A stretch of DNA of 64,000 nucleotides from an uncultured bacterium (lineage in GTDB: Bacteria; Fidelibacterota; Marinisomatia; Marinisomatales; TCS56). The stretch is taken from contig CAYPJE010000006.1 in assembly GCA_964410945.1 (NCBI GenBank), positions 2,469 through 66,468 on the forward strand, read 5' to 3'. Of the stretch, positions 28,230 through 38,843 are shown piece by piece. How positions within the stretch are numbered: the first letter of the stretch is position 1; each line of letters begins with the position of its first letter. Under the pieces are notes generated by a model. It saw only the letters and a program-made list of their open reading frames with translations, did no database searches and had not been told where the DNA came from. The position numbers and the translations under genes were made by a program.

Positions 28230-29429
28230 ATGTTGTTTGAATTCGATTATCTGGCCGAACAGAAAGCAAAACTGAAAGTAATTGGTGTCGGTGGTGCCGG
28301 TGGCAATGCCATCAACCGTATGATCCAGACCGGAATGCAGGGCGTTGATTTTATAGCTATCAATACCGACGCTCAAGATCTTGAGAACAATGCGGCTTCA
28401 CATAAAATCCAGATCGGGAAAAGTTTGACCAAAGGCCTCGGAGCCGGGGCCAAGGCCGAGATCGGCCGTGAGGCGATCGAGACCGACAAGGAAGCTGTGA
28501 TGGCTGTCCTGGAAGACCTGGACATGGTCTTCATCACCGCCGGAATGGGCGGTGGTACCGGCACCGGCGCGGCACCGGTAATTGCCCAGCTGGCCCGGGA
28601 AATGGACATCCTGACGGTTGGCATTGTTACTCTCCCCTTCAATTTCGAAGGCCCTAAACGGATGAACCGTGCCTTGAATGGCATCAGTGAACTGCGGAAA
28701 GCCTGCGATACTACAATCGCCATTCCCAACCAGAAACTGATGTCCATAGTGGATAAATCCACCACGGTCATGGAAGCATTTAAAACAGCCGACTCTACCC
28801 TGCATCAGGCTGTAAAAGGCATATCCGACCTGATCAACGTCCATGGTTTGATTAATCTGGATTTCGCTGATGTAGAAACAATAATGAAAAATATGGGTGA
28901 AGCCATCATGGGTACCGGTAATGCCAGTGGTGAAGAACGGGCTGTACTGGCTGCCCAGCAGGCCATATCCAGTCCTTTACTGGACAGCGCACCAATCAGC
29001 GGCGCCCAGGGTGTACTGGTGAATATCACCGGCGGCCCAGACCTGACCCTGATTGAAGTGGACGAAGCTACTTCCATTATCTTTGAAGAAGCCGGTCAGG
29101 ATGCCAATATCATCTTTGGTGCCGTGATCGATCCGGCCATGGCAGAGGAGATTCGCGTAACTGTCATAGCCACCGGTTTCTCACTCCCGGACTACGCCGA
29201 GGAAGAAAAACGACCCGCAACTAAGAAAAATCTACCAGAAGAAACCAAGGTACCGGTCTATGCTGAAAGCCTGAATCTGCCCCTGATCAATCAGAAGCAG
29301 GTGGACAGCCACACCCCGGACCAGCCGGCGGGCCAGCCTAATCCCAAATTCGTATTTGATGATAACAATTCATCATTATTCGACAACGATCTGGAGATTC
29401 CGGCCTTTGTCCGGCAACAACATAAGTAA
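28230..29429 (+). CDS. ftsZ: Cell division protein FtsZ
   Basis: GVGGAGGNA, tubulin signature GGGTGTG, NLDFAD, C-terminal LEIPAFVR. Confidence 0.99.
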   Translation: MLFEFDYLAEQKAKLKVIGVGGAGGNAINRMIQTGMQGVDFIAINTDAQDLENNAASHKIQIGKSLTKGLGAGAKAEIGREAIETDKEAVMAVLEDLDMVFITAGMGGGTGTGAAPVIAQLAREMDILTVGIVTLPFNFEGPKRMNRALNGISELRKACDTTIAIPNQKLMSIVDKSTTVMEAFKTADSTLHQAVKGISDLINVHGLINLDFADVETIMKNMGEAIMGTGNASGEERAVLAAQQAISSPLLDSAPISGAQGVLVNITGGPDLTLIEVDEATSIIFEEAGQDANIIFGAVIDPAMAEEIRVTVIATGFSLPDYAEEEKRPATKKNLPEETKVPVYAESLNLPLINQKQVDSHTPDQPAGQPNPKFVFDDNNSSLFDNDLEIPAFVRQQHK

Positions 29430-29454
29430 CCTGTAACTTACGATGATGCTCAGG

Positions 29455-29479
29455 CGGCCCCCGCAAGGGGGCCGTTTTT
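29455..29479 (+). terminator. Intrinsic terminator of the dcw operon
   Basis: CGGCCCCC-GCAA-GGGGGCCG followed by TTTTT. Confidence 0.9.
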
Positions 29480-29482
29480 ATT

Positions 29483-29514
29483 AAGTGCCTGGCACCTCAA
29501 GGTGCCAGGCACTT
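29483..29514. repeat. 14-bp perfect inverted repeat whose arms are themselves palindromic (REP-like)
   Basis: AAGTGCCTGGCACC-TCAA-GGTGCCAGGCACTT. Confidence 0.75.
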
Positions 29515-29537
29515 TTTCAAATTATGTTTGATTACAT

Positions 29538-29566
29538 AAAAAAATACCCGGCCGGAGCCGGGTATT
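29538..29566 (-). terminator. Intrinsic terminator of rpmB
   Basis: AATACCCGGC-CGGA-GCCGGGTATT, with a U-run on the minus strand (A7 at 29538-44). Confidence 0.85.
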
Positions 29567-29591
29567 AAAAAATCGGATTGGATTCGAAATA

Positions 29592-29828
29592 CTATATCTT
29601 CATCCCTTTGGCACGCAATTCACCGACAATCTTACGAATGCCTTTTTTGTCGATCAGACGCATACCCTGGGTCGATACTGTCAAAGTGACGAATCGTTTT
29701 TCGTCCGGCAGCCAGAAACGCTTTTTCTGTAAATTGATATTAAAACGCCGGCGGCTTTTGTTGTGAGCGTGGCTGACGTTGTTGCCATACATCGGTTTGT
29801 TACCGGTTACGTCGCATACTCTGCTCAT
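29592..29828 (-). CDS. rpmB: 50S ribosomal protein L28
   Basis: MSRVCDVTG...[17 protein letters not shown]. Confidence 0.97.
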
Positions 29829-29917
29829 GATATTCTCCAGATAATTGTTTTGTACTTAACCAAAAAAGCCAGCAAATTTACACTTCAATTTTAAAAGGAC
29901 AAACGAAAAGGTTAAGA

Positions 29918-30376
29918 ATGTCGTTAACAATTATCCGTCCCGCTGCCCTCGCTGATACATCGGTTATTGCCGATTTTAACATCCGGCTGGCCTGGGAAAC
30001 AGAAAATATCCAATTGAAACCGGAAATAATTAAAACCGGCGTACAGGCTGTATTCAATGATACCTCCAAAGGATTCTACCTGCTTGCTGAACGGGATGAG
30101 GGTATTGCCGGACAGTTACTCATAACCACTGAATGGTCGGACTGGCGCAATAAATATTTCTGGTGGATACAGTCGGTCTACGTGGAGCAACAGCACCGTG
30201 GAACTGGCGTATTCAAAGCACTGTATTCCGAAGTCATCGATCTGGCCCGCCGGTCGGGTTCGGTCTGCGGAATCAGGTTGGATGTTGATACTGCCAACAT
30301 AAAAGCCCAGGAAACCTACCAGAAACTGGGAATGCAACCATCCAATTATTTATTATACGAGCTGGAAATCGACTGA
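29918..30376 (+). CDS. GNAT family N-acetyltransferase
   Basis: EWSDWRN..FWWIQSVYV..HRGTGVFKALY, GIRLDV, YQKLGM. Confidence 0.9.
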   Translation: MSLTIIRPAALADTSVIADFNIRLAWETENIQLKPEIIKTGVQAVFNDTSKGFYLLAERDEGIAGQLLITTEWSDWRNKYFWWIQSVYVEQQHRGTGVFKALYSEVIDLARRSGSVCGIRLDVDTANIKAQETYQKLGMQPSNYLLYELEID

Positions 30377-31363
30377 ATGCAGATCGGCTCGCTGAAAATT
30401 ACCCCCCCCATTTTACTGGCACCCATGGCCGGTGTCACCGATTATCCTTTCCGTGTTTTATGCAAGGAACAGGGAGCACAGCTGGTCTATTCCGAATTTG
30501 TATCAGCCCATGGAATCATCCGGGAAAATGCTAAAACCCTGGATATGATCCGGTTCACCGAATTCGAACGGCCCATTGGAATTCAAATATTCGGTGACGA
30601 TCCACAAATCATGGCCCAGGCCGCCCGGTTGATCGCCGACCGTTTCCAGCCTGACCTGATCGATATCAATTACGGTTGTCCGGTACCCAAAGTCACCAAG
30701 CGCGGCGCCGGATCGGCGGCTTTGAAGGATCTGTGTTTGATGGATGATATTACCGGGGCAGTAGTGGAAGCGGTCCCGGAATTACCCGTGACAGTGAAAA
30801 TGCGTTCCGGTTGGGATTCCAGAAGCTGCGTCATCCCGGAAGCCGGGCCACGGCTGGAACAGGCCGGTGTCAAGGCAATCACCCTTCATCCCCGCAGCAC
30901 CAAACAGAGTTACAGTGGTCGGGCAGACTGGGACCTGATCCGGGAATTGAAGCGGGCGGTCACGATCCCGGTGATCGGTAACGGCGATGTACAAACCGGA
31001 GATGATCTGCTCCGAATGATTGAGTCAACCAAATGCGATGGCGTGATGATTGGCAGGGCTGCACTGGGGAATCCATTTATATTTAAGGAGCTCAATGCTG
31101 CTTACCGGGGTAATGAAAAATCAGACAAACCATCGGTCGCACTAATGGTCAAAACCTGCCGTCGCCATCTTGATCTCCAGGTTGAATACCGGGGTGAACT
31201 AGTAGGCTGCAAGCTGATGCGCAAACATTTCGGCTGGTACCTGAAAGGATTTCCCGGTGCCTCCGGTTTTCGGCAGAAACTTGTCACAGCACCCAGCTTG
31301 AATGAGATCAATTCAATCCTGGATGAAGTACTAATTAGCCATTCCCCCGCATTCACAGAATAA
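30377..31363 (+). CDS. dusB: tRNA-dihydrouridine synthase B
   Basis: LAPMAGVTD, QIFG, DINYGCPVPKV, VTVKMR, NGDV, GVMIGRA. Confidence 0.95.
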   Translation: MQIGSLKITPPILLAPMAGVTDYPFRVLCKEQGAQLVYSEFVSAHGIIRENAKTLDMIRFTEFERPIGIQIFGDDPQIMAQAARLIADRFQPDLIDINYGCPVPKVTKRGAGSAALKDLCLMDDITGAVVEAVPELPVTVKMRSGWDSRSCVIPEAGPRLEQAGVKAITLHPRSTKQSYSGRADWDLIRELKRAVTIPVIGNGDVQTGDDLLRMIESTKCDGVMIGRAALGNPFIFKELNAAYRGNEKSDKPSVALMVKTCRRHLDLQVEYRGELVGCKLMRKHFGWYLKGFPGASGFRQKLVTAPSLNEINSILDEVLISHSPAFTE

Positions 31364-31480
31364 AATAACCGAAAAACAGTAATTTTACTAATCGGCAGGC
31401 CTTGCTTATGATTTTTGGGGACACCTAAATTTCATACGTTCTTTAGCATAATTATTCATAATCTAACCTGGAGGCAGGAC

Positions 31481-33115
31481 ATGCCAAACATAAGAGTATC
31501 TGTACCAAAACCGCTCAACGATCCTGTCAAATCCTATGCCCCCGGAAGTCCGGAGCGAAAGGAACTGGTTTCCAAGCTGGCGGAGTTAAAGTCAACGGAA
31601 ATCGAGATTCCCCTGATCATCGGCGGCAAGGAAGTACGTACTGGTAATCTGGCGGAATGTGTTATCCCCCACAACCATCAGCACATATTGGCGCGCTACC
31701 ATCTGGCTGGAGAGAACGAAGTAAACGCTGCCATTGATGCATCCCAGGAAGCCTGGAAGACCTGGTCCACCATGCCCTGGGAAAGCCGGGTTGCTATCTT
31801 TCATAAAATCGCCGCTTTGCTGGCCGGACCGTATCGCCAGACCCTCAATGCGGCCACGATGCTCAATATGAGCAAGAACGCCTACCAGGCCGAGATCGAT
31901 TCAGCCTGTGAATTAATTGATTTCCTGAATTTCAATGCCTGGTACGCCCAGGGAATCTACGAGATTCAACCTCCCTATTCCCCGGCCGGATTCTGGAATA
32001 TGGTGGAACACCGCCCGCTGGAAGGATTCATCTTTGCAGTGACGCCCTTCAATTTTACCGCTATCGCCGGCAACCTGCCCACCGCTCCGGCCCTGATGGG
32101 TAATGTGGCCCTGTGGAAACCGGCCTCCAGCGCTGTCTATCCGGCTTATCACCTGATGCGGCTGTTCCAGGAAGCTGGACTGCCCGATGGCGTAATCAAC
32201 TTCATTCCCGGTCCCGGTTCCAAGGTCGGCCCGAACGTTTTGAAAAGCGGTCAGCTGGCCGGTATTCACTTCACCGGTTCGACCGGCGTATTCCAGAATA
32301 TGTGGAATACAATCGGTAATAATATTGCTTCCTATAAATCCTATCCGCGAATTGTCGGCGAGACTGGCGGCAAGGATTTTTGCATGGCCCACGAATCGGC
32401 CGATACCGATGGCCTAGCTATCGCTATGATCCGCGGCGCCTTCGAATACCAGGGACAAAAATGTTCCGCCCTGTCGCGCGCCTACATACCATCCTCGATC
32501 TGGCCCCAGGTTAAGGATCGTTATCTATCAGAGCTGGAAACGGTAAAAATGGGCGACGTGGAAGATTTCAGCAATTTCGTTAATGCTGTCATCGATAAAG
32601 CAGCTTTCGATTCGATCACTGCCTATATCGATTACGCTCAGGCATCACCGGAAGCGGAAATCATCTCCGGTGGAAAATATGATGATTCGGAAGGCTATTT
32701 CATCGAACCTACCACAATTGTTACCACCAATCCCCATTTCAAGACAATGGAGGAAGAGATATTTGGTCCGGTGCTGACAATCTACGTCTATGATCCCAAG
32801 CAATGGACCGAAACACTTGAACTGGTTGACAACACCTCACCCTACGCCCTGACCGGCTGCGTATTCGGAAATGACCGCCAGGCCGTGATCGAGGCAACCA
32901 ATGCTTTGACACATGCCGCCGGTAATTTCTATATCAATGACAAGCCCACCGGTGCCGTGGTGGGACAACAGCCATTCGGTGGTGGCCGGGCCTCGGGTAC
33001 CAATGATAAGGCCGGATCGATGTTCAATCTCCTGCGGTGGATCTCCCAACGGACAATGAAGGAAACCTACGTCCCACCGACCGATTACCGGTATCCATTC
33101 ATGGCCGAAAAATGA
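31481..33115 (+). CDS. pruA: L-glutamate gamma-semialdehyde (P5C) dehydrogenase
   Basis: GGAGG RBS before ATG 31481; QAEIDSACE, TPFNFTAI, FTGST, GETGGK, FEYQGQKCSA, EEIFGP, GNFYINDKPTG. Confidence 0.93.
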   Translation: MPNIRVSVPKPLNDPVKSYAPGSPERKELVSKLAELKSTEIEIPLIIGGKEVRTGNLAECVIPHNHQHILARYHLAGENEVNAAIDASQEAWKTWSTMPWESRVAIFHKIAALLAGPYRQTLNAATMLNMSKNAYQAEIDSACELIDFLNFNAWYAQGIYEIQPPYSPAGFWNMVEHRPLEGFIFAVTPFNFTAIAGNLPTAPALMGNVALWKPASSAVYPAYHLMRLFQEAGLPDGVINFIPGPGSKVGPNVLKSGQLAGIHFTGSTGVFQNMWNTIGNNIASYKSYPRIVGETGGKDFCMAHESADTDGLAIAMIRGAFEYQGQKCSALSRAYIPSSIWPQVKDRYLSELETVKMGDVEDFSNFVNAVIDKAAFDSITAYIDYAQASPEAEIISGGKYDDSEGYFIEPTTIVTTNPHFKTMEEEIFGPVLTIYVYDPKQWTETLELVDNTSPYALTGCVFGNDRQAVIEATNALTHAAGNFYINDKPTGAVVGQQPFGGGRASGTNDKAGSMFNLLRWISQRTMKETYVPPTDYRYPFMAEK

Positions 33116-33236
33116 TTAAACTGATCGCCGACTTACTTTCATTCCAACAGGACTTCGGTTATTCCTGATCAAGCAGTAATACCTTCATCAGGCCATCAGC
33201 TGCCACACTTTATTCAATTAAACATTTGGAGTAATC

Positions 33237-34553
33237 ATGAACCGAATTAAAACACTGATTATGGGCGCCGCCGGGCGGGATTTTCATAATTTTAATGTTA
33301 TTTACCGTGATAACGATCAATTTGATGTTGTCGCCTTCACTGCCACCCAGATTCCTGATATCGAGGGTCGGGTATACCCGGCTGAATTAGCCGGTAAACT
33401 ATACCCGGAAGGTATTCATATTCACGATGAGAGTGACCTGGAGGTCCTGATCGATCGTCACCAGGTGGAAGAAGTTGTCTTTTCCTATTCCGATATATCC
33501 CACGAGACTGTCATGCATATCGCCTCCCGCGTGATTGCCACCGGAGCCCATTTCAAACTGCTGGGTGCCGCCCCAACCATGGTAAAATCAACCAAACCGG
33601 TGATCGGAATCGGTGCGGTCAGAACCGGTTGCGGAAAAAGCCAGACCACCCGCAAGGTAGCCCAGATCCTGAAGGATGCCGGTAAAAAGGTAGCCGCTAT
33701 CCGCCACCCCATGCCATATGGCGATCTGGCAGCTCAGAAAGTTCAGCGCTTTGCCTCGATCGAGGATCTTAAGAAACACAAATGTACCATCGAGGAAATG
33801 GAAGAGTATGAACCACATATCACTACCGGCACCATCATCTATGCCGGTGTCGATTATGAAGCCATCCTGAGGGAAGCGGAAAAGGAAGCGGACGTAATTC
33901 TCTGGGACGGCGGTAATAATGATATGCCTTTCTACAAGCTTGATTTGAACATTGTAGTGGCCGATCCTCATCGTCCGGGACACGAATTAACTTACTACCC
34001 CGGTGAAACCAACCTGCTGATGGCCGATGTGGTGGTAATCAACAAGATCGATACTGCCGATTCGGATTATACCGAAGAAGTACGCTGGAATATCCGCCAG
34101 AACAATCCCGAGGCCGTTATCATTGATGCTGCCTCGCCAATCTCGGTAGAAGATCATAAGCTGATTCTGGGGAAACGGGCTCTGGTCGTGGAAGATGGCC
34201 CGACCCTGACCCACGGTGAAATGAAATATGGTGCCGGCACTGTGGCCGCTGAAAAATTCGGTGCAGCCGAAGCAATCGATCCCCGGCCCTTCACTGTAGG
34301 TACAATTTCCGATACCTTCGAGAAATACAATGATATCGGAACGGTATTGCCAGCGATGGGTTATGGTGATCAGCAGATGAAAGACCTGGAGGCCACGATT
34401 GCCAAAGTGGACTGTGATGTTGTCATTATCGGTACACCGATCGATCTGCGGCGGGTCTGCGAAATCAAACAACCTTCGGTTCGTGTAACTTATGATTTAC
34501 AGGAAATCGGCCGTCCCAGCCTGGAGGACGCCCTGGCCGAATTCTTGAAATAA
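33237..34553 (+). CDS. P-loop protein of the cyclic 2,3-diphosphoglycerate synthetase-like (COG2403) family; probable arginine synthetase
   Basis: GAAGRDFHNFN, AFTATQIP, Walker A GAVRTGCGKSQT, IRHPMPYG, EEMEEYEPH, WDGGNND, VEDGPTLTHG; stop overlaps the arcC start. Confidence 0.8.
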   Translation: MNRIKTLIMGAAGRDFHNFNVIYRDNDQFDVVAFTATQIPDIEGRVYPAELAGKLYPEGIHIHDESDLEVLIDRHQVEEVVFSYSDISHETVMHIASRVIATGAHFKLLGAAPTMVKSTKPVIGIGAVRTGCGKSQTTRKVAQILKDAGKKVAAIRHPMPYGDLAAQKVQRFASIEDLKKHKCTIEEMEEYEPHITTGTIIYAGVDYEAILREAEKEADVILWDGGNNDMPFYKLDLNIVVADPHRPGHELTYYPGETNLLMADVVVINKIDTADSDYTEEVRWNIRQNNPEAVIIDAASPISVEDHKLILGKRALVVEDGPTLTHGEMKYGAGTVAAEKFGAAEAIDPRPFTVGTISDTFEKYNDIGTVLPAMGYGDQQMKDLEATIAKVDCDVVIIGTPIDLRRVCEIKQPSVRVTYDLQEIGRPSLEDALAEFLK

Positions 34554-35497
34554 TGGCCCGAACAGCTATCATCGCCTTTGGGGGAAATGCCCTTTCCCCC
34601 AAGGGTGAATCCGGTACGATTTCCCAGCAATTCGCCCATACCCGCGAAAGTCTCAGTGCCGTCATGCATTTTGTTGAGTTGGATTATAACTTATGCCTGA
34701 CCCATGGGAATGGGCCCCAGGTGGGCGATGAGCTGTTGCGGATGGAAATCACTCATGAAAAAATTGCTCCTCAGCCACTAGGCGTTTGTGTGGCCGGCAC
34801 CCAGGGAACGATCGGCTACATGATCCAGCAGTCGCTGCAGAATGCTCTGAAAACAGCCGACGTAGACCGGGAAGTTGTTACCCTGGTTACCCAGGTAGTT
34901 GTAGATCCGGATGATCCGTCGATTGCTAACCCTACCAAGTATATCGGACGTTCCTATCCCCTGGCGGAAGCGGAAAAGCTGGCTAAAAAATTCGGCTGGA
35001 ATATATCAGAACAGAATCCCGGCGAATGGCGCCAGGTGGTTCCCAGCCCCATACCCCAGTTTATAATGCACGGTATGAGTGTCCGTGCCCTGGTTGATCG
35101 TGGCACAATTGTGCTGGCGGCCGGTGGGGGTGGTATCCCGGTCTATTACAAGAAAAACGGCTGCCTGGAAGGCCTCGATGCCGTGATCGATAAAGACCTG
35201 GCCGCTGCCTTGATGGGCCGTATCGTCCATGCTGATGAATTATGGATTATAACCGATATCGATGCGGCCTACCGGAATTTCAATCAGGCTGGCCAGGAAC
35301 GCCTGGCAACCCTTACTGTTTCCGAGGCAAAAAATCTTATGAAAGAGGGAGAATTTCAATCAGGAAGTATGGCACCGAAAATCCAAGCAGCCATATATTT
35401 CCTGTCGCACCACGGTGAAAAAGTGGTGATTACGTCCATTCCTGAAGTCGCTAATGCATTTGAAGGAGCCGCAGGAACGACAATTGTCAGGGATTAA
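34553..35497 (+). CDS. arcC: Carbamate kinase
   Basis: AFGGNAL, THGNGPQVG, PTKYIG, AGGGGIP, AVIDKD, GSMAPK. Confidence 0.95.
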   Translation: MARTAIIAFGGNALSPKGESGTISQQFAHTRESLSAVMHFVELDYNLCLTHGNGPQVGDELLRMEITHEKIAPQPLGVCVAGTQGTIGYMIQQSLQNALKTADVDREVVTLVTQVVVDPDDPSIANPTKYIGRSYPLAEAEKLAKKFGWNISEQNPGEWRQVVPSPIPQFIMHGMSVRALVDRGTIVLAAGGGGIPVYYKKNGCLEGLDAVIDKDLAAALMGRIVHADELWIITDIDAAYRNFNQAGQERLATLTVSEAKNLMKEGEFQSGSMAPKIQAAIYFLSHHGEKVVITSIPEVANAFEGAAGTTIVRD

Positions 35498-35512
35498 TCC
35501 CGGGAGGAAATA

Positions 35513-36682
35513 TTGAAAATTCACGAGTACCAGGCCAAGGATATATTCCGGCAGTTCAAGGTAGCCGTTCCTAAAAGCCGCCCCGCATTCAGTATTGATG
35601 AAGCCGTTAACGTATACAACCAACTCGGCTCGAAACTGGCGGTAGTCAAAGCCCAGATCCATGCCGGTGGCCGTGGAAAAGGCGGTGGTGTGAAACTGGC
35701 CCATAACGAGGTTGAGGTCCGCAATATCGCCCGGCGCCTGCTTGGTATGAATCTGGTCACCCACCAGACGGGTCCTGGGGGGACCAAGGTTCAGCGCCTG
35801 CTGGTAGAAGCGGGTATTGATATCGCCCGTGAGTTGTATGCCGGTATCGTATTGGATCGAGCCAGCGGACAATTTGTCTTTATGGTATCCACCGAGGGTG
35901 GTGTCGAAATCGAAAAAGTGGCCGCCGAAACTCCTGAAAAAATTATCAAAGAATGGATCAATCCCGGATTGGGATTTCGGATTTACCAGGCCCGTAAGCT
36001 GGCATTTGCCCTCGGGCTGAAAGGTGCCCAGGTTAAATCAGCAATTAAAATCTTCCGAGCCCTGTGGGAGGTATTCCAGGCCAAGGATTGCTCACTGATC
36101 GAAATCAATCCCCTGGTGGTTACCAAGGATGATCAGGTAATCGCATTAGATGCAAAAATCAATTTTGACGATAATGGACTGTTCCGCCACCCCGATCTGA
36201 AAGAATTGCGGGATGTTACCGAGGAAGATCCAGCCGAACTGGAAGCCAGCAAATTCAGCCTCAATTATATCAAGCTGGATGGTACTGTTGGGTGCATGGT
36301 CAATGGTGCCGGTCTGGCAATGGCCACAATGGATATTATTAAACTGAACGGTGGTGAACCGGCCAATTTCCTGGATGTGGGTGGGGTGGCTAATTCGGAA
36401 ACGGTCGCCAATGGATTCCGCCTGATCCTGGCCGACCCGAATGTAAAGGCAATCTTAGTGAATATTTTCGGTGGAATCGTCCGCTGTGACCGGGTGGCCA
36501 ATGGACTGATCGAGGCACTGACGACAGTACAAGTAGAAGTTCCTGTCGTAATCAGACTGGAGGGAACGAATGCCCAGGAGGCAGCTGTTATTCTTAAAAA
36601 TTCAGATCTGAAATTTAATGTGGCCGACAGCCTGCAGGATGCGGCACAGAAAGCGGTGGCTGAAGCCCGGGGAGGTATCTGA
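35513..36682 (+). CDS. sucC: Succinyl-CoA synthetase beta subunit
   Basis: TTG start after GGAGG; [51 protein letters not shown]. Confidence 0.97.
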
Positions 36683-37557
36683 TGAGTGTTCTGGTAAACA
36701 ATGATACTCGCTTAGTGATCCAGGGAATTACCGGCCAGGAAGGAAGCTTTCACGGCGAACAGATGCAGGCCTATGGCACCAAGCTGGTCGGTGGTGTCAC
36801 GCCAGGTAAAGGCGGCCAACAGGTTCTTGGCGTGCCGGTGTTCGACACTGTTGCAACAGCTCGAAAGGAAACCGGTGCCAACACCAGTGTTATTTTTGTC
36901 CCTCCTGCTTTTGCCGCCGAAGCGATTATCGAAGCTGCCGATGCCGGAATTGAGCTGGTAGTCTGTATTACCGAAGGTATTCCAACCATGGATATGGTTG
37001 AGGTACATGATTTTCTTAAATGTACCAATACACGATTAGTAGGTCCCAACTGCCCGGGAGTAATTTCACCCGGACAGGCCAAAGTGGGAATTATGCCCGG
37101 GTTCATCCATTCACCTGGCAAGATCGGTGTTGTATCACGGTCTGGCACCCTGACCTACGAAGCGGTACACCAGTTAAGTCAATTTGGAATGGGCCAGTCA
37201 ACATCAATTGGAATTGGTGGCGACCCGATTATTGGCACGAATTTTATCGATATGCTGGAATTATTCCAGAACGATACAGGAACCGAAGGGGTGGTGCTGA
37301 TCGGTGAGATCGGGGGAACCGCTGAAGAAGAGGCCTCCCAATGGGTTATCGACCAGAAATTTAATAAGCCGATTGTGGCTTTCATTGCCGGGCAGACCGC
37401 TCCGCCGGGAAGGCGAATGGGGCATGCCGGGGCAATTATAGCCGGTGGAAAAGGAACTGCAGCCGATAAAATGCAGGCCCTGACCAGGGCGGGAATCCGG
37501 GTCGTGAAAAGCCCGGCTGAAATTGGTGCAGCCATGCATGCTGCCATAAACGAATAA
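36682..37557 (+). CDS. sucD: Succinyl-CoA synthetase alpha subunit
   Basis: [31 protein letters not shown]. Confidence 0.97.
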
Positions 37558-37596
37558 ATCTTGATAACTGATTAAATGAAAAAACAGGAGTAATTT

Positions 37597-38019
37597 GTGG
37601 GAAATCGCACATTAGCTATCATTAAACCGGATGCCGTTGGAAATTTATATACAGGAAAAATTATTGATCGTCTGTTAAGTGGCGGCTTTAAAATTGTTGC
37701 TGCCCGGCTCGAACACCTGTCAGACGATAGGGCTCAGGGATTTTATGCTGTTCACAAAGAGCGTCCCTTCTTTAACGATCTGGTGGAATTCATGACCTCC
37801 GGTCCCTGCATGCCAATGGTTATAGAGCATGAAAACGCCGTTGAATCATTTCGGAATTTTATCGGCAAAACCAACCCGGCTGAAGCCGCAGAAGGCACAA
37901 TTCGCCGCGATTTTGCCGAAAGTATCCAGAATAATGCGATTCATGGCTCCGATTCAGACGAAAATGCTGAAAAAGAAATTGCATTTTTCTTTTCAGCCGA
38001 TCAAATTCATACTACTTGA
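37597..38019 (+). CDS. ndk: Nucleoside diphosphate kinase
   Basis: [25 protein letters not shown]. Confidence 0.97.
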
Positions 38020-38051
38020 TTAGCATTTTTTCCAAAATACATGCGAGGGTT

Positions 38052-38843
38052 ATGAGTATTAAACATTACTTTACAATCTTATTGGCTGTATTACTACTGA
38101 TCGGTTGTGGTGGAGATGGGGTTGAAGGTGTTGTCGGTGAATACCAGTCGGCTGAAGCCGAACTGCCGGCAGATGACGGGATTTTTGATTTCACCTGGTC
38201 GATCATACAGCAACCGGATGCCAGTATTCTGGCCACCGATGATCTTGAGTTGAGCCAGGATGACCATGTCATCAGCTTTATTCCTGACTATGCTGGCAAT
38301 TACATCTTTGAAGTTATTGTTTCCGATGAATTTGGAGATGAGGTGTCAACACAGCAATTTGAGTTTATCATCACTGATTCAGACGAATCGGCGGCAGAAG
38401 ATGATGAAGATTTAGATGATATGGAAGAAGAAGCTGAAGATTCAGAATCAGACTTCTATGCTGAAGATACAGTGGAGGAAACTTATACTCCACCGCCACC
38501 TCCTCCGGAACCGGTAAAACAGCCGGTGCGTGCGGTATCCAAACCAAAACCAAAGCCGAAACCGGTAATTGGTGCTGATATCCCCAAAGATCCGTTGCGT
38601 TACACGATCCAGGTTTCCGCCAAGCGTACCTTTGAAGAAGCCCAGCATTCCGCCGAGCAATTTATCCAAGCCGGTTATGATGCCTACATTCAAAAGGCCT
38701 ACTTTAAAGAAACCGATGAAATCTGGTACCGGGTAAGGGTTGGTAGTTTCGAAAGCTATACTACCGCCCGCAATGTAGCAAAAGAAATATCCGGCATAGC
38801 TCAAAGTGATATCTGGGTCGATCACATTCGACTGGAAAATTAG
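38052..38843 (+). CDS. Lipoprotein with Ig/PKD-like domain, acidic/Pro linker and C-terminal SPOR domain
   Basis: Lipobox LIGC; FTWSIIQQP...PDYAGNYIFEVIVSD; YTIQVSA...WYRVRVGSF. Confidence 0.8.
   Translation: MSIKHYFTILLAVLLLIGCGGDGVEGVVGEYQSAEAELPADDGIFDFTWSIIQQPDASILATDDLELSQDDHVISFIPDYAGNYIFEVIVSDEFGDEVSTQQFEFIITDSDESAAEDDEDLDDMEEEAEDSESDFYAEDTVEETYTPPPPPPEPVKQPVRAVSKPKPKPKPVIGADIPKDPLRYTIQVSAKRTFEEAQHSAEQFIQAGYDAYIQKAYFKETDEIWYRVRVGSFESYTTARNVAKEISGIAQSDIWVDHIRLEN

Follow-up and report, generated by a model that had tools for sequence, protein, structure and literature searches.

A bacterial orthologue of arginine synthetase, predicted to be coupled to carbamate kinase and preceded by a candidate leader peptide, in the Marinimicrobia

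We examined a 64,000-nucleotide stretch of contig CAYPJE010000006.1 (positions 2,469 to 66,468, forward strand; assembly GCA_964410945.1), hereafter called the window, from an uncultured bacterium of the phylum Fidelibacterota (Marinimicrobia). The open reading frame (ORF) at 33237-34553 on the plus strand starts with ATG and encodes a 438-aa P-loop protein. By sequence homology, this protein is an orthologue of the arginine synthetase ArcE, neither a cyclic 2,3-diphosphoglycerate synthetase (cDPGS) nor a GTPase, and we will hereafter refer to its gene as arcE. The carbamate kinase gene arcC begins on the last base of the arcE stop codon, and the two products likely belong to a catabolic, ATP-yielding route from arginine. 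Upstream of arcE we also found an 18-codon ORF (uORF) that, from its conservation, looks like a new and previously undescribed candidate regulatory leader peptide.

ArcE is known from Thermococcus kodakarensis, where TK2200 catalyzes the reaction Arg + ADP + Pi = citrulline + NH3 + ATP and acts together with ornithine carbamoyltransferase (OTC) and carbamate kinase (Michimori, Yokooji, Atomi, PNAS 2024, PMC11032458). An earlier note on this DNA, made from the letters alone, had named this enzyme and its partners, and that study bears out both. L-arginine is the specific substrate of TK2200p and ADP its preferred nucleotide (CDP, UDP and GDP supported 38%, 13% and 8% of activity), and homologues of the enzyme are widespread in archaea and bacteria, where they complement the absence of the arginine deiminase gene arcA (PMC11032458). 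The same study used cDPGS, a distant relative, as an outgroup and noted that arcE lies near arcC in some genomes (PMC11032458). Both enzyme and pathway, with their wide occurrence in bacteria, are already published, and the window ArcE adds one ordinary member to the family; our literature search turned up no publication that deals with a Marinimicrobia ArcE.

The 438-aa protein carries the Walker A motif AVRTGCGKS at residues 127-135 (nt 33615-33641). A search of curated families returned no match for it beyond a marginal hit to the cobW/HypB/UreG family (Pfam cobW, 23 bits), and the only sequence matches in the PDB were very weak ones to cDPG synthetases (9sxb, 23.5 bits; 8oru, 17.9 bits). 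Thermococcus genomes, located through their carbamate kinase genes with the Pyrococcus furiosus enzyme as query, were then searched with the window protein, and exactly one strong homologue was recovered from 40 of 41 (four of four in the first set), at 64–67% identity and 650–670 bits over an alignment spanning residues 3-437 of window ArcE. Since arcE (TK2200) occurs throughout the Thermococcales (PMC11032458), we take this single strong homologue to be the TK2200 orthologue.

True cDPGS orthologues (14 from Methanobacteriales, retrieved with a PDB 8ORU fragment) aligned to the window protein at ≤25% identity over ~190 residues and ≤46 bits. We placed the protein in a maximum-likelihood tree with 126 members, comprising the window protein, 29 relatives from its phylum, 78 sequences from other phyla, four from Thermococcus and the 14 cDPGS. 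The cDPGS clade was set apart at 100% SH-aLRT and the window protein fell inside the ArcE clade, in agreement with the identity that the earlier note had proposed; along the tree, the window protein lay 1.25 substitutions per site from Thermococcus ArcE, as against ~11.5 from cDPGS. The same division was seen at 85 signature positions, defined as those conserved in ≥97% of 112 ArcE-like sequences: all 85 were identical in the window protein and the four Thermococcus proteins, whereas the cDPGS consensus matched at 22 of 85. Conserved ArcE blocks include GAAGRDFH, the P-loop RTGxGKS, RHPMPYG, WDGGNND and EDGPTxTHG. Most of the signature residues are absent from cDPGS, which has MEGSGAA in place of WDGGNND and is missing RHPMPYG.

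An AlphaFold2 model of the protein, computed with 50 homologues (pLDDT 93.7, pTM 0.91), displayed a P-loop core with an LpxK-like ATP-Mg pocket, as reported for TK2200p. Foldseek ranked cDPGS first (E 9e-18, TM ~0.45), followed by LpxK 4EHY (TM 0.68 on target) and then HypB and MeaB; the first two are also the fold neighbours that the authors report for TK2200p, and 4EHY is the very structure superimposed on their model. The cDPGS of Methanothermus fervidus (PDB 8ORK, 8ORU; also 9SXB) resembles ArcE as a distant homologue of comparable length with a P-loop core, but stands apart at 15–25% identity, a TM-score of ~0.45 and in a separate clade. On this orthology, window ArcE would convert L-arginine, ADP and Pi to L-citrulline, NH3 and ATP.

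Close homologues carry other names in public records. NCBI lists them as "cyclic 2,3-diphosphoglycerate synthase" or "GTPase" and JGI as "predicted GTPase", the kind of mislabelling that the earlier note had anticipated. Hundreds of close homologues in the records of this phylum are misnamed in this way and should read arginine synthetase.

Several further observations concern the family as a whole, a large one with matches to 667 clusters (50% identity) at E ≤1e-30. The window protein contains VINKID at residues 267-272 (nt 34035-34052), an NKxD-like motif that is kept in the ArcE family with K270 nearly invariant; NKxD is typical of guanine-specific SIMIBI GTPases. Four metagenomic proteins, P0130 (766 aa), P0135 (655 aa), P0138 (651 aa) and P0253 (806 aa), are fusions in which 130–500 extra residues precede the ArcE domain. 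Some Thermococcus genomes (G158, G167, G175, G176, G178, G180, G181, G186, G187, G190 and G192) encode a second, very distant paralogue (open frames of 443–464 aa, 17–29 bits), which is probably a cDPGS-like protein.

At the junction of arcE with the next gene, ...GAAATAATGGCC..., the TAA stop (34551-34553) and an ATG (34553-34555) share one base (TAATG), with the ORFs 33237-34553 and 34553-35497 meeting at base 34553 just as the earlier note had read them. Through this TAATG, arcC is predicted to be translationally coupled to arcE, and the two genes would be co-transcribed. The 314-aa product of arcC (34553-35497, plus strand, ATG start) scored 299 bits against the carbamate kinase family NF009007 (cut-off 266) and 336.8 bits against TIGR00746, just below the cut-off of 358, and its nearest solved structure is P. 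furiosus carbamate kinase (1e19, 251 bits). Both arcE and arcC are present in single copy, making arcC the sole carbamate kinase gene of the genome. On the other side, arcE is preceded by a gene for L-glutamate gamma-semialdehyde dehydrogenase (P5CDH; 31415-33115, plus strand; TIGR01236, 770 bits, cut-off 614), the enzyme for the final step from ornithine to glutamate.

We surveyed the rest of the genome (3.3 Mb, 95% complete), which the names carried by close homologues assign to Marinimicrobia / Neomarinimicrobiota, for the partners of this pathway. The earlier note had remarked that the window holds no arginine deiminase; a PF02274 search bore this out and extended it, as no arcA was found in the window or in the 95%-complete genome, which was likewise without an arginase-family protein. 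The sole PF02274 match was a 252-aa dimethylargininase-like protein of the amidinotransferase superfamily (contig C34:11561-12319; 236 bits vs a 450 cut-off). A bona fide OTC is encoded in one copy on contig C2 (TIGR00658, 384 bits, cut-off 281), so that the combination of OTC with a missing arcA, on which the earlier note had made its proposal depend, is what the genome holds. An ornithine aminotransferase-like protein is encoded on contig C8 (TIGR01885, 378.3 bits vs a 378.4 cut-off), and pyrB, argG, argH and carB are all present.

Contig C7 (19068-34946) bears a separate cluster with a YgeW-like carbamoyltransferase that scored below both the OTC and YgeW cut-offs. It is accompanied by adenine-deaminase-like, xanthine-dehydrogenase-type, SsnA-like, YgeY-like, pyridoxal-phosphate-enzyme and YgfK-like genes. 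This cluster resembles the ygeW-yqeA region of Escherichia coli, but lacks a carbamate kinase of its own.

From these genes a route can be written from arginine through citrulline, ornithine and glutamate semialdehyde to glutamate, with two substrate-level phosphorylations and with ArcE as the only recognizable entry step. ArcE would convert arginine to citrulline with the gain of one ATP, and the unlinked OTC on contig C2 would phosphorolyse citrulline to ornithine and carbamoyl phosphate. Carbamate kinase would then use carbamoyl phosphate and ADP to form ATP, CO2 and NH3, for a total of 2 ATP per arginine, while the C8 aminotransferase and the P5CDH encoded upstream of arcE would carry ornithine to glutamate. 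The arginine deiminase pathway (ArcA-ArcB-ArcC) also turns arginine into citrulline, splits this into ornithine and carbamoyl phosphate and ends in ATP, and it shares its last two enzymes with the present route; the difference is that here an unrelated P-loop enzyme would perform step one, and the energy of deimination would be kept as a second ATP.

Set beside the ArcE-ArcB-ArcC system of T. kodakarensis, the window system has an orthologous ArcE with the family positions kept and matching predicted fold neighbours, an arcE near arcC, an OTC gene and no arcA. It differs in its host, a mesophilic marine bacterium, in the coupling of arcE to arcC within a P5CDH-arcE-arcC-sucCD-ndk array, and in the conserved 18-codon leader ORF that precedes arcE. 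It also differs in the presence of argG/argH and carbamoyl-phosphate synthetase (CPS), by which a role in carbamoyl-phosphate supply is unneeded. Because neither arginine synthesis nor carbamoyl-phosphate supply needs ArcE in this genome, a catabolic role is its best reading, and the pathway would run in the catabolic direction with a yield of 2 ATP per arginine. We regard it as likely, overall, that ArcE in this bacterium is a P-loop arginine synthetase coupled to carbamate kinase in such a catabolic, ATP-yielding route.

Several points weigh against this reading. The OTC and aminotransferase genes are unlinked to the arcE operon. Our comparison used Thermococcus orthologues as a proxy for TK2200, not the TK2200 sequence, and the sole characterized ArcE is from a hyperthermophilic archaeon (PMC11032458). 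The reaction has a delta G of about -6.8 kJ/mol at 80 °C (PMC11032458), and since it lies near equilibrium, metabolite pools determine which way it runs in vivo. Other enzymes of the same genome could also be involved: the dimethylargininase-like hydrolase of contig C34 could produce citrulline from guanidino compounds, methylated or not, and the YgeW-like cluster could feed the sole carbamate kinase.

The alternative that survives best is that ArcE is mainly synthetic, forming arginine from citrulline, NH3 and ATP, or that the pathway serves chiefly as a source of carbamoyl phosphate for pyrimidines, in the manner of T. kodakarensis. In that archaeon the ArcE reaction, which can run in either direction, contributes to arginine synthesis in vivo (PMC11032458), and the arginine synthetase pathway has been shown to supply carbamoyl phosphate (Michimori et al. 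2026, PMC13260591). Here, however, argG, argH and carB leave neither role needed, and the neighbours of arcE encode carbamate kinase on one side and a catabolic semialdehyde dehydrogenase on the other; where argG/argH coexist with arcE, the authors themselves read ArcE as catabolic (PMC11032458). We consider this alternative unlikely.

It is more doubtful still that the ArcE-family protein acts on another guanidino compound while the chief task of carbamate kinase lies with the YgeW-like carbamoyltransferase and the purine-type cluster of contig C7. Such a division of labour would fit a genome with a single carbamate kinase and a YgeW-like carbamoyltransferase beside xanthine-dehydrogenase-type genes. 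Yet the protein shares ~65% identity and 85 of 85 family positions with Thermococcus ArcE, an L-arginine-specific enzyme, and it is arcE, not the C7 cluster, to which arcC is coupled. That the protein is a cDPGS or a regulatory GTPase, as the NCBI and JGI names, the weak cobW hit, the NKxD-like VINKID and the cDPGS as nearest solved fold might suggest, is hardly credible, given the preference of TK2200p for ADP with GDP at 8% of activity, and a cDPGS identity was ruled out by the ≤25% identity (≤46 bits over ~190 residues), the separate clade and the 22 of 85 signature positions.

We found arcE in 125 of 151 sampled phylum genomes (~83%), representing 49 of 60 genera. In 29 other phylum loci, arcC was directly downstream of arcE in 15 and a semialdehyde dehydrogenase gene was just upstream in ~13. 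The array dusB-P5CDH-arcE-arcC-sucC-sucD-ndk is kept in relatives from the same order and class, and P5CDH was upstream of arcE in those sampled (67–79% identity). Adjacency of arcE and ndk persists across phylum relatives without arcC and sucCD. In other phyla (80 loci), arcC lay within 6 kb of arcE in 12, adjacent to it in six, and OTC lay within 6 kb in eight, which provides an independent link among arcE, arcC and OTC.

The Marinimicrobia, an abundant and uncultured group, degrade peptides in deep and oxygen-poor ocean waters. Since arcE is carried by ~83% of the genomes and stands among genes for carbamate kinase, succinyl-CoA synthetase and Ndk, our results suggest that arginine is a significant source of ATP and ammonia for this phylum.

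We found the uORF by aligning the 121-nt gap between P5CDH and arcE with that of relatives. It occupies 33112-33168 on the plus strand, encodes MIKLIADLLSFQQDFGYS-stop in 18 codons, and its ATG overlaps the stop codon of P5CDH (ATGA). A 68-nt spacer (33169-33236) with the Shine-Dalgarno (SD) sequence GGAG at 33228-33231 separates its stop from the arcE start. Small ORFs ending in FG[FY]x-stop, 52–91 nt before the arcE start, were present at 22 of the 50 phylum loci sampled, which belong to many families and have differing upstream genes. Among the copies that start with ATG (n = 19), 16 have 18 codons and three have 19, with the consensus M-x-[KSRQ]-[YFQ]-[LIF]-x-x-[LIV]-[IL]-x-[WFY]-[RTK]-[QYH]-x-F-G-[FY]-x-stop. 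One of the 22 copies (L177 / L241, genome G016, of the same family) is interrupted at codon 13 by an in-frame TAA, where others have CAA, CAG or AAT; its HFGFC-stop ending is still in frame, and the break may be explained by recent loss, misassembly or read-through.

The FG[FY] of the motif is invariant, and its codons cover all four for glycine, both for phenylalanine and all three stop codons. Entropy across the uORF copies was highest at codon position 3 (1.5–1.6 bits, vs 0.7–1.1 at positions 1 and 2), and this concentration of variability at the third position points to selection on the peptide. By chance, FG[FY]x-stop is expected 0.0024 times per 309 nt in this genome, and the fuller motif occurs exactly once in the six frames of the whole genome, at the arcE site. 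Outside the phylum, it was seen in one of 84 arcE upstream regions, consistent with chance, and a literature search turned up no paper on such an arcE leader. We are confident that the uORF is a translated element under selection, and somewhat favour the view that it controls arcE in cis.

How such a leader might act can be sketched by comparison. Known leader peptides that stall the ribosome at termination include TnaC (tryptophan), SpeFL (ornithine) and PepNL. Like them, the uORF spans very few codons and sits at a fixed position ahead of a catabolic gene, and its conservation is concentrated next to the stop, with an aromatic residue conserved some eight positions upstream; it varies in its stop codon (TAA, TAG, TGA) and is without sequence similarity to them. 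It is conceivable, although we would not presume it, that the uORF is a metabolite-sensing arrest peptide. We tentatively picture a phylum-specific nascent-peptide sensor, in which the ribosome might pause at or near the stop when arginine or another metabolite of the pathway is abundant, and this pause might turn on arcE-arcC by uncovering the ribosome-binding site of arcE or, alternatively, by keeping Rho from acting. If this were true, the uORF would give both arginine catabolism and the arginine synthetase pathway their first known leader-peptide switch, and would do so in a group that ranks among the most abundant uncultured bacteria of the dark ocean. In any case, the leader ORF offers a concrete, testable candidate for the control of a bacterial arginine synthetase operon, a subject on which we know of no published work.

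An anti-SD element past the uORF stop could form a good helix with the arcE SD in ~9 loci. Cognate anti-SD:SD pairs were not significantly better than non-cognate ones (2411/20000 permutations), and we therefore do not claim a model of SD sequestration for the uORF. Separately, many of the uORF copies carry Gly-Phe codons (GGNTT) that can pair with AANCC just past the stop (33154-33200 in the window); the hairpin so formed has 5–6 bp, and the last codon and the stop lie within its loop or close to it. This was noted for the window copy and for those at loci L174, L175, L181, L186, L187, L269, L270 and L272, and some of the changes look compensatory (GGA/TCC, GGC/GCC). Several of the spacers between uORF and arcE are C-rich and G-poor immediately past the stop.

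From 29918 to beyond 40046 the genes of the window are tightly packed on one strand, in the plus-strand order GNAT, dusB, P5CDH, arcE, arcC, sucC, sucD, ndk. A terminator scan found no plus-strand intrinsic terminator between 29918 and 38019; the scans for sigma-70 promoters and intrinsic terminators gave results at chance level. An Rfam scan of 29400-38200 returned no credible match, the spacer between uORF and arcE included. Downstream of arcC, sucC begins 15 nt further on, and sucC-sucD (35513-37557, plus strand) encode an ADP-forming succinyl-CoA synthetase (NF001913, 572 bits; NF004230, 448 bits). These are followed by ndk (37597-38019, plus strand), identified as a nucleoside-diphosphate kinase gene by family profile matches. 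Counted from arcC through sucC-sucD to ndk (35513-38019 for the last three), four consecutive genes encode enzymes of phosphotransfer or substrate-level phosphorylation.

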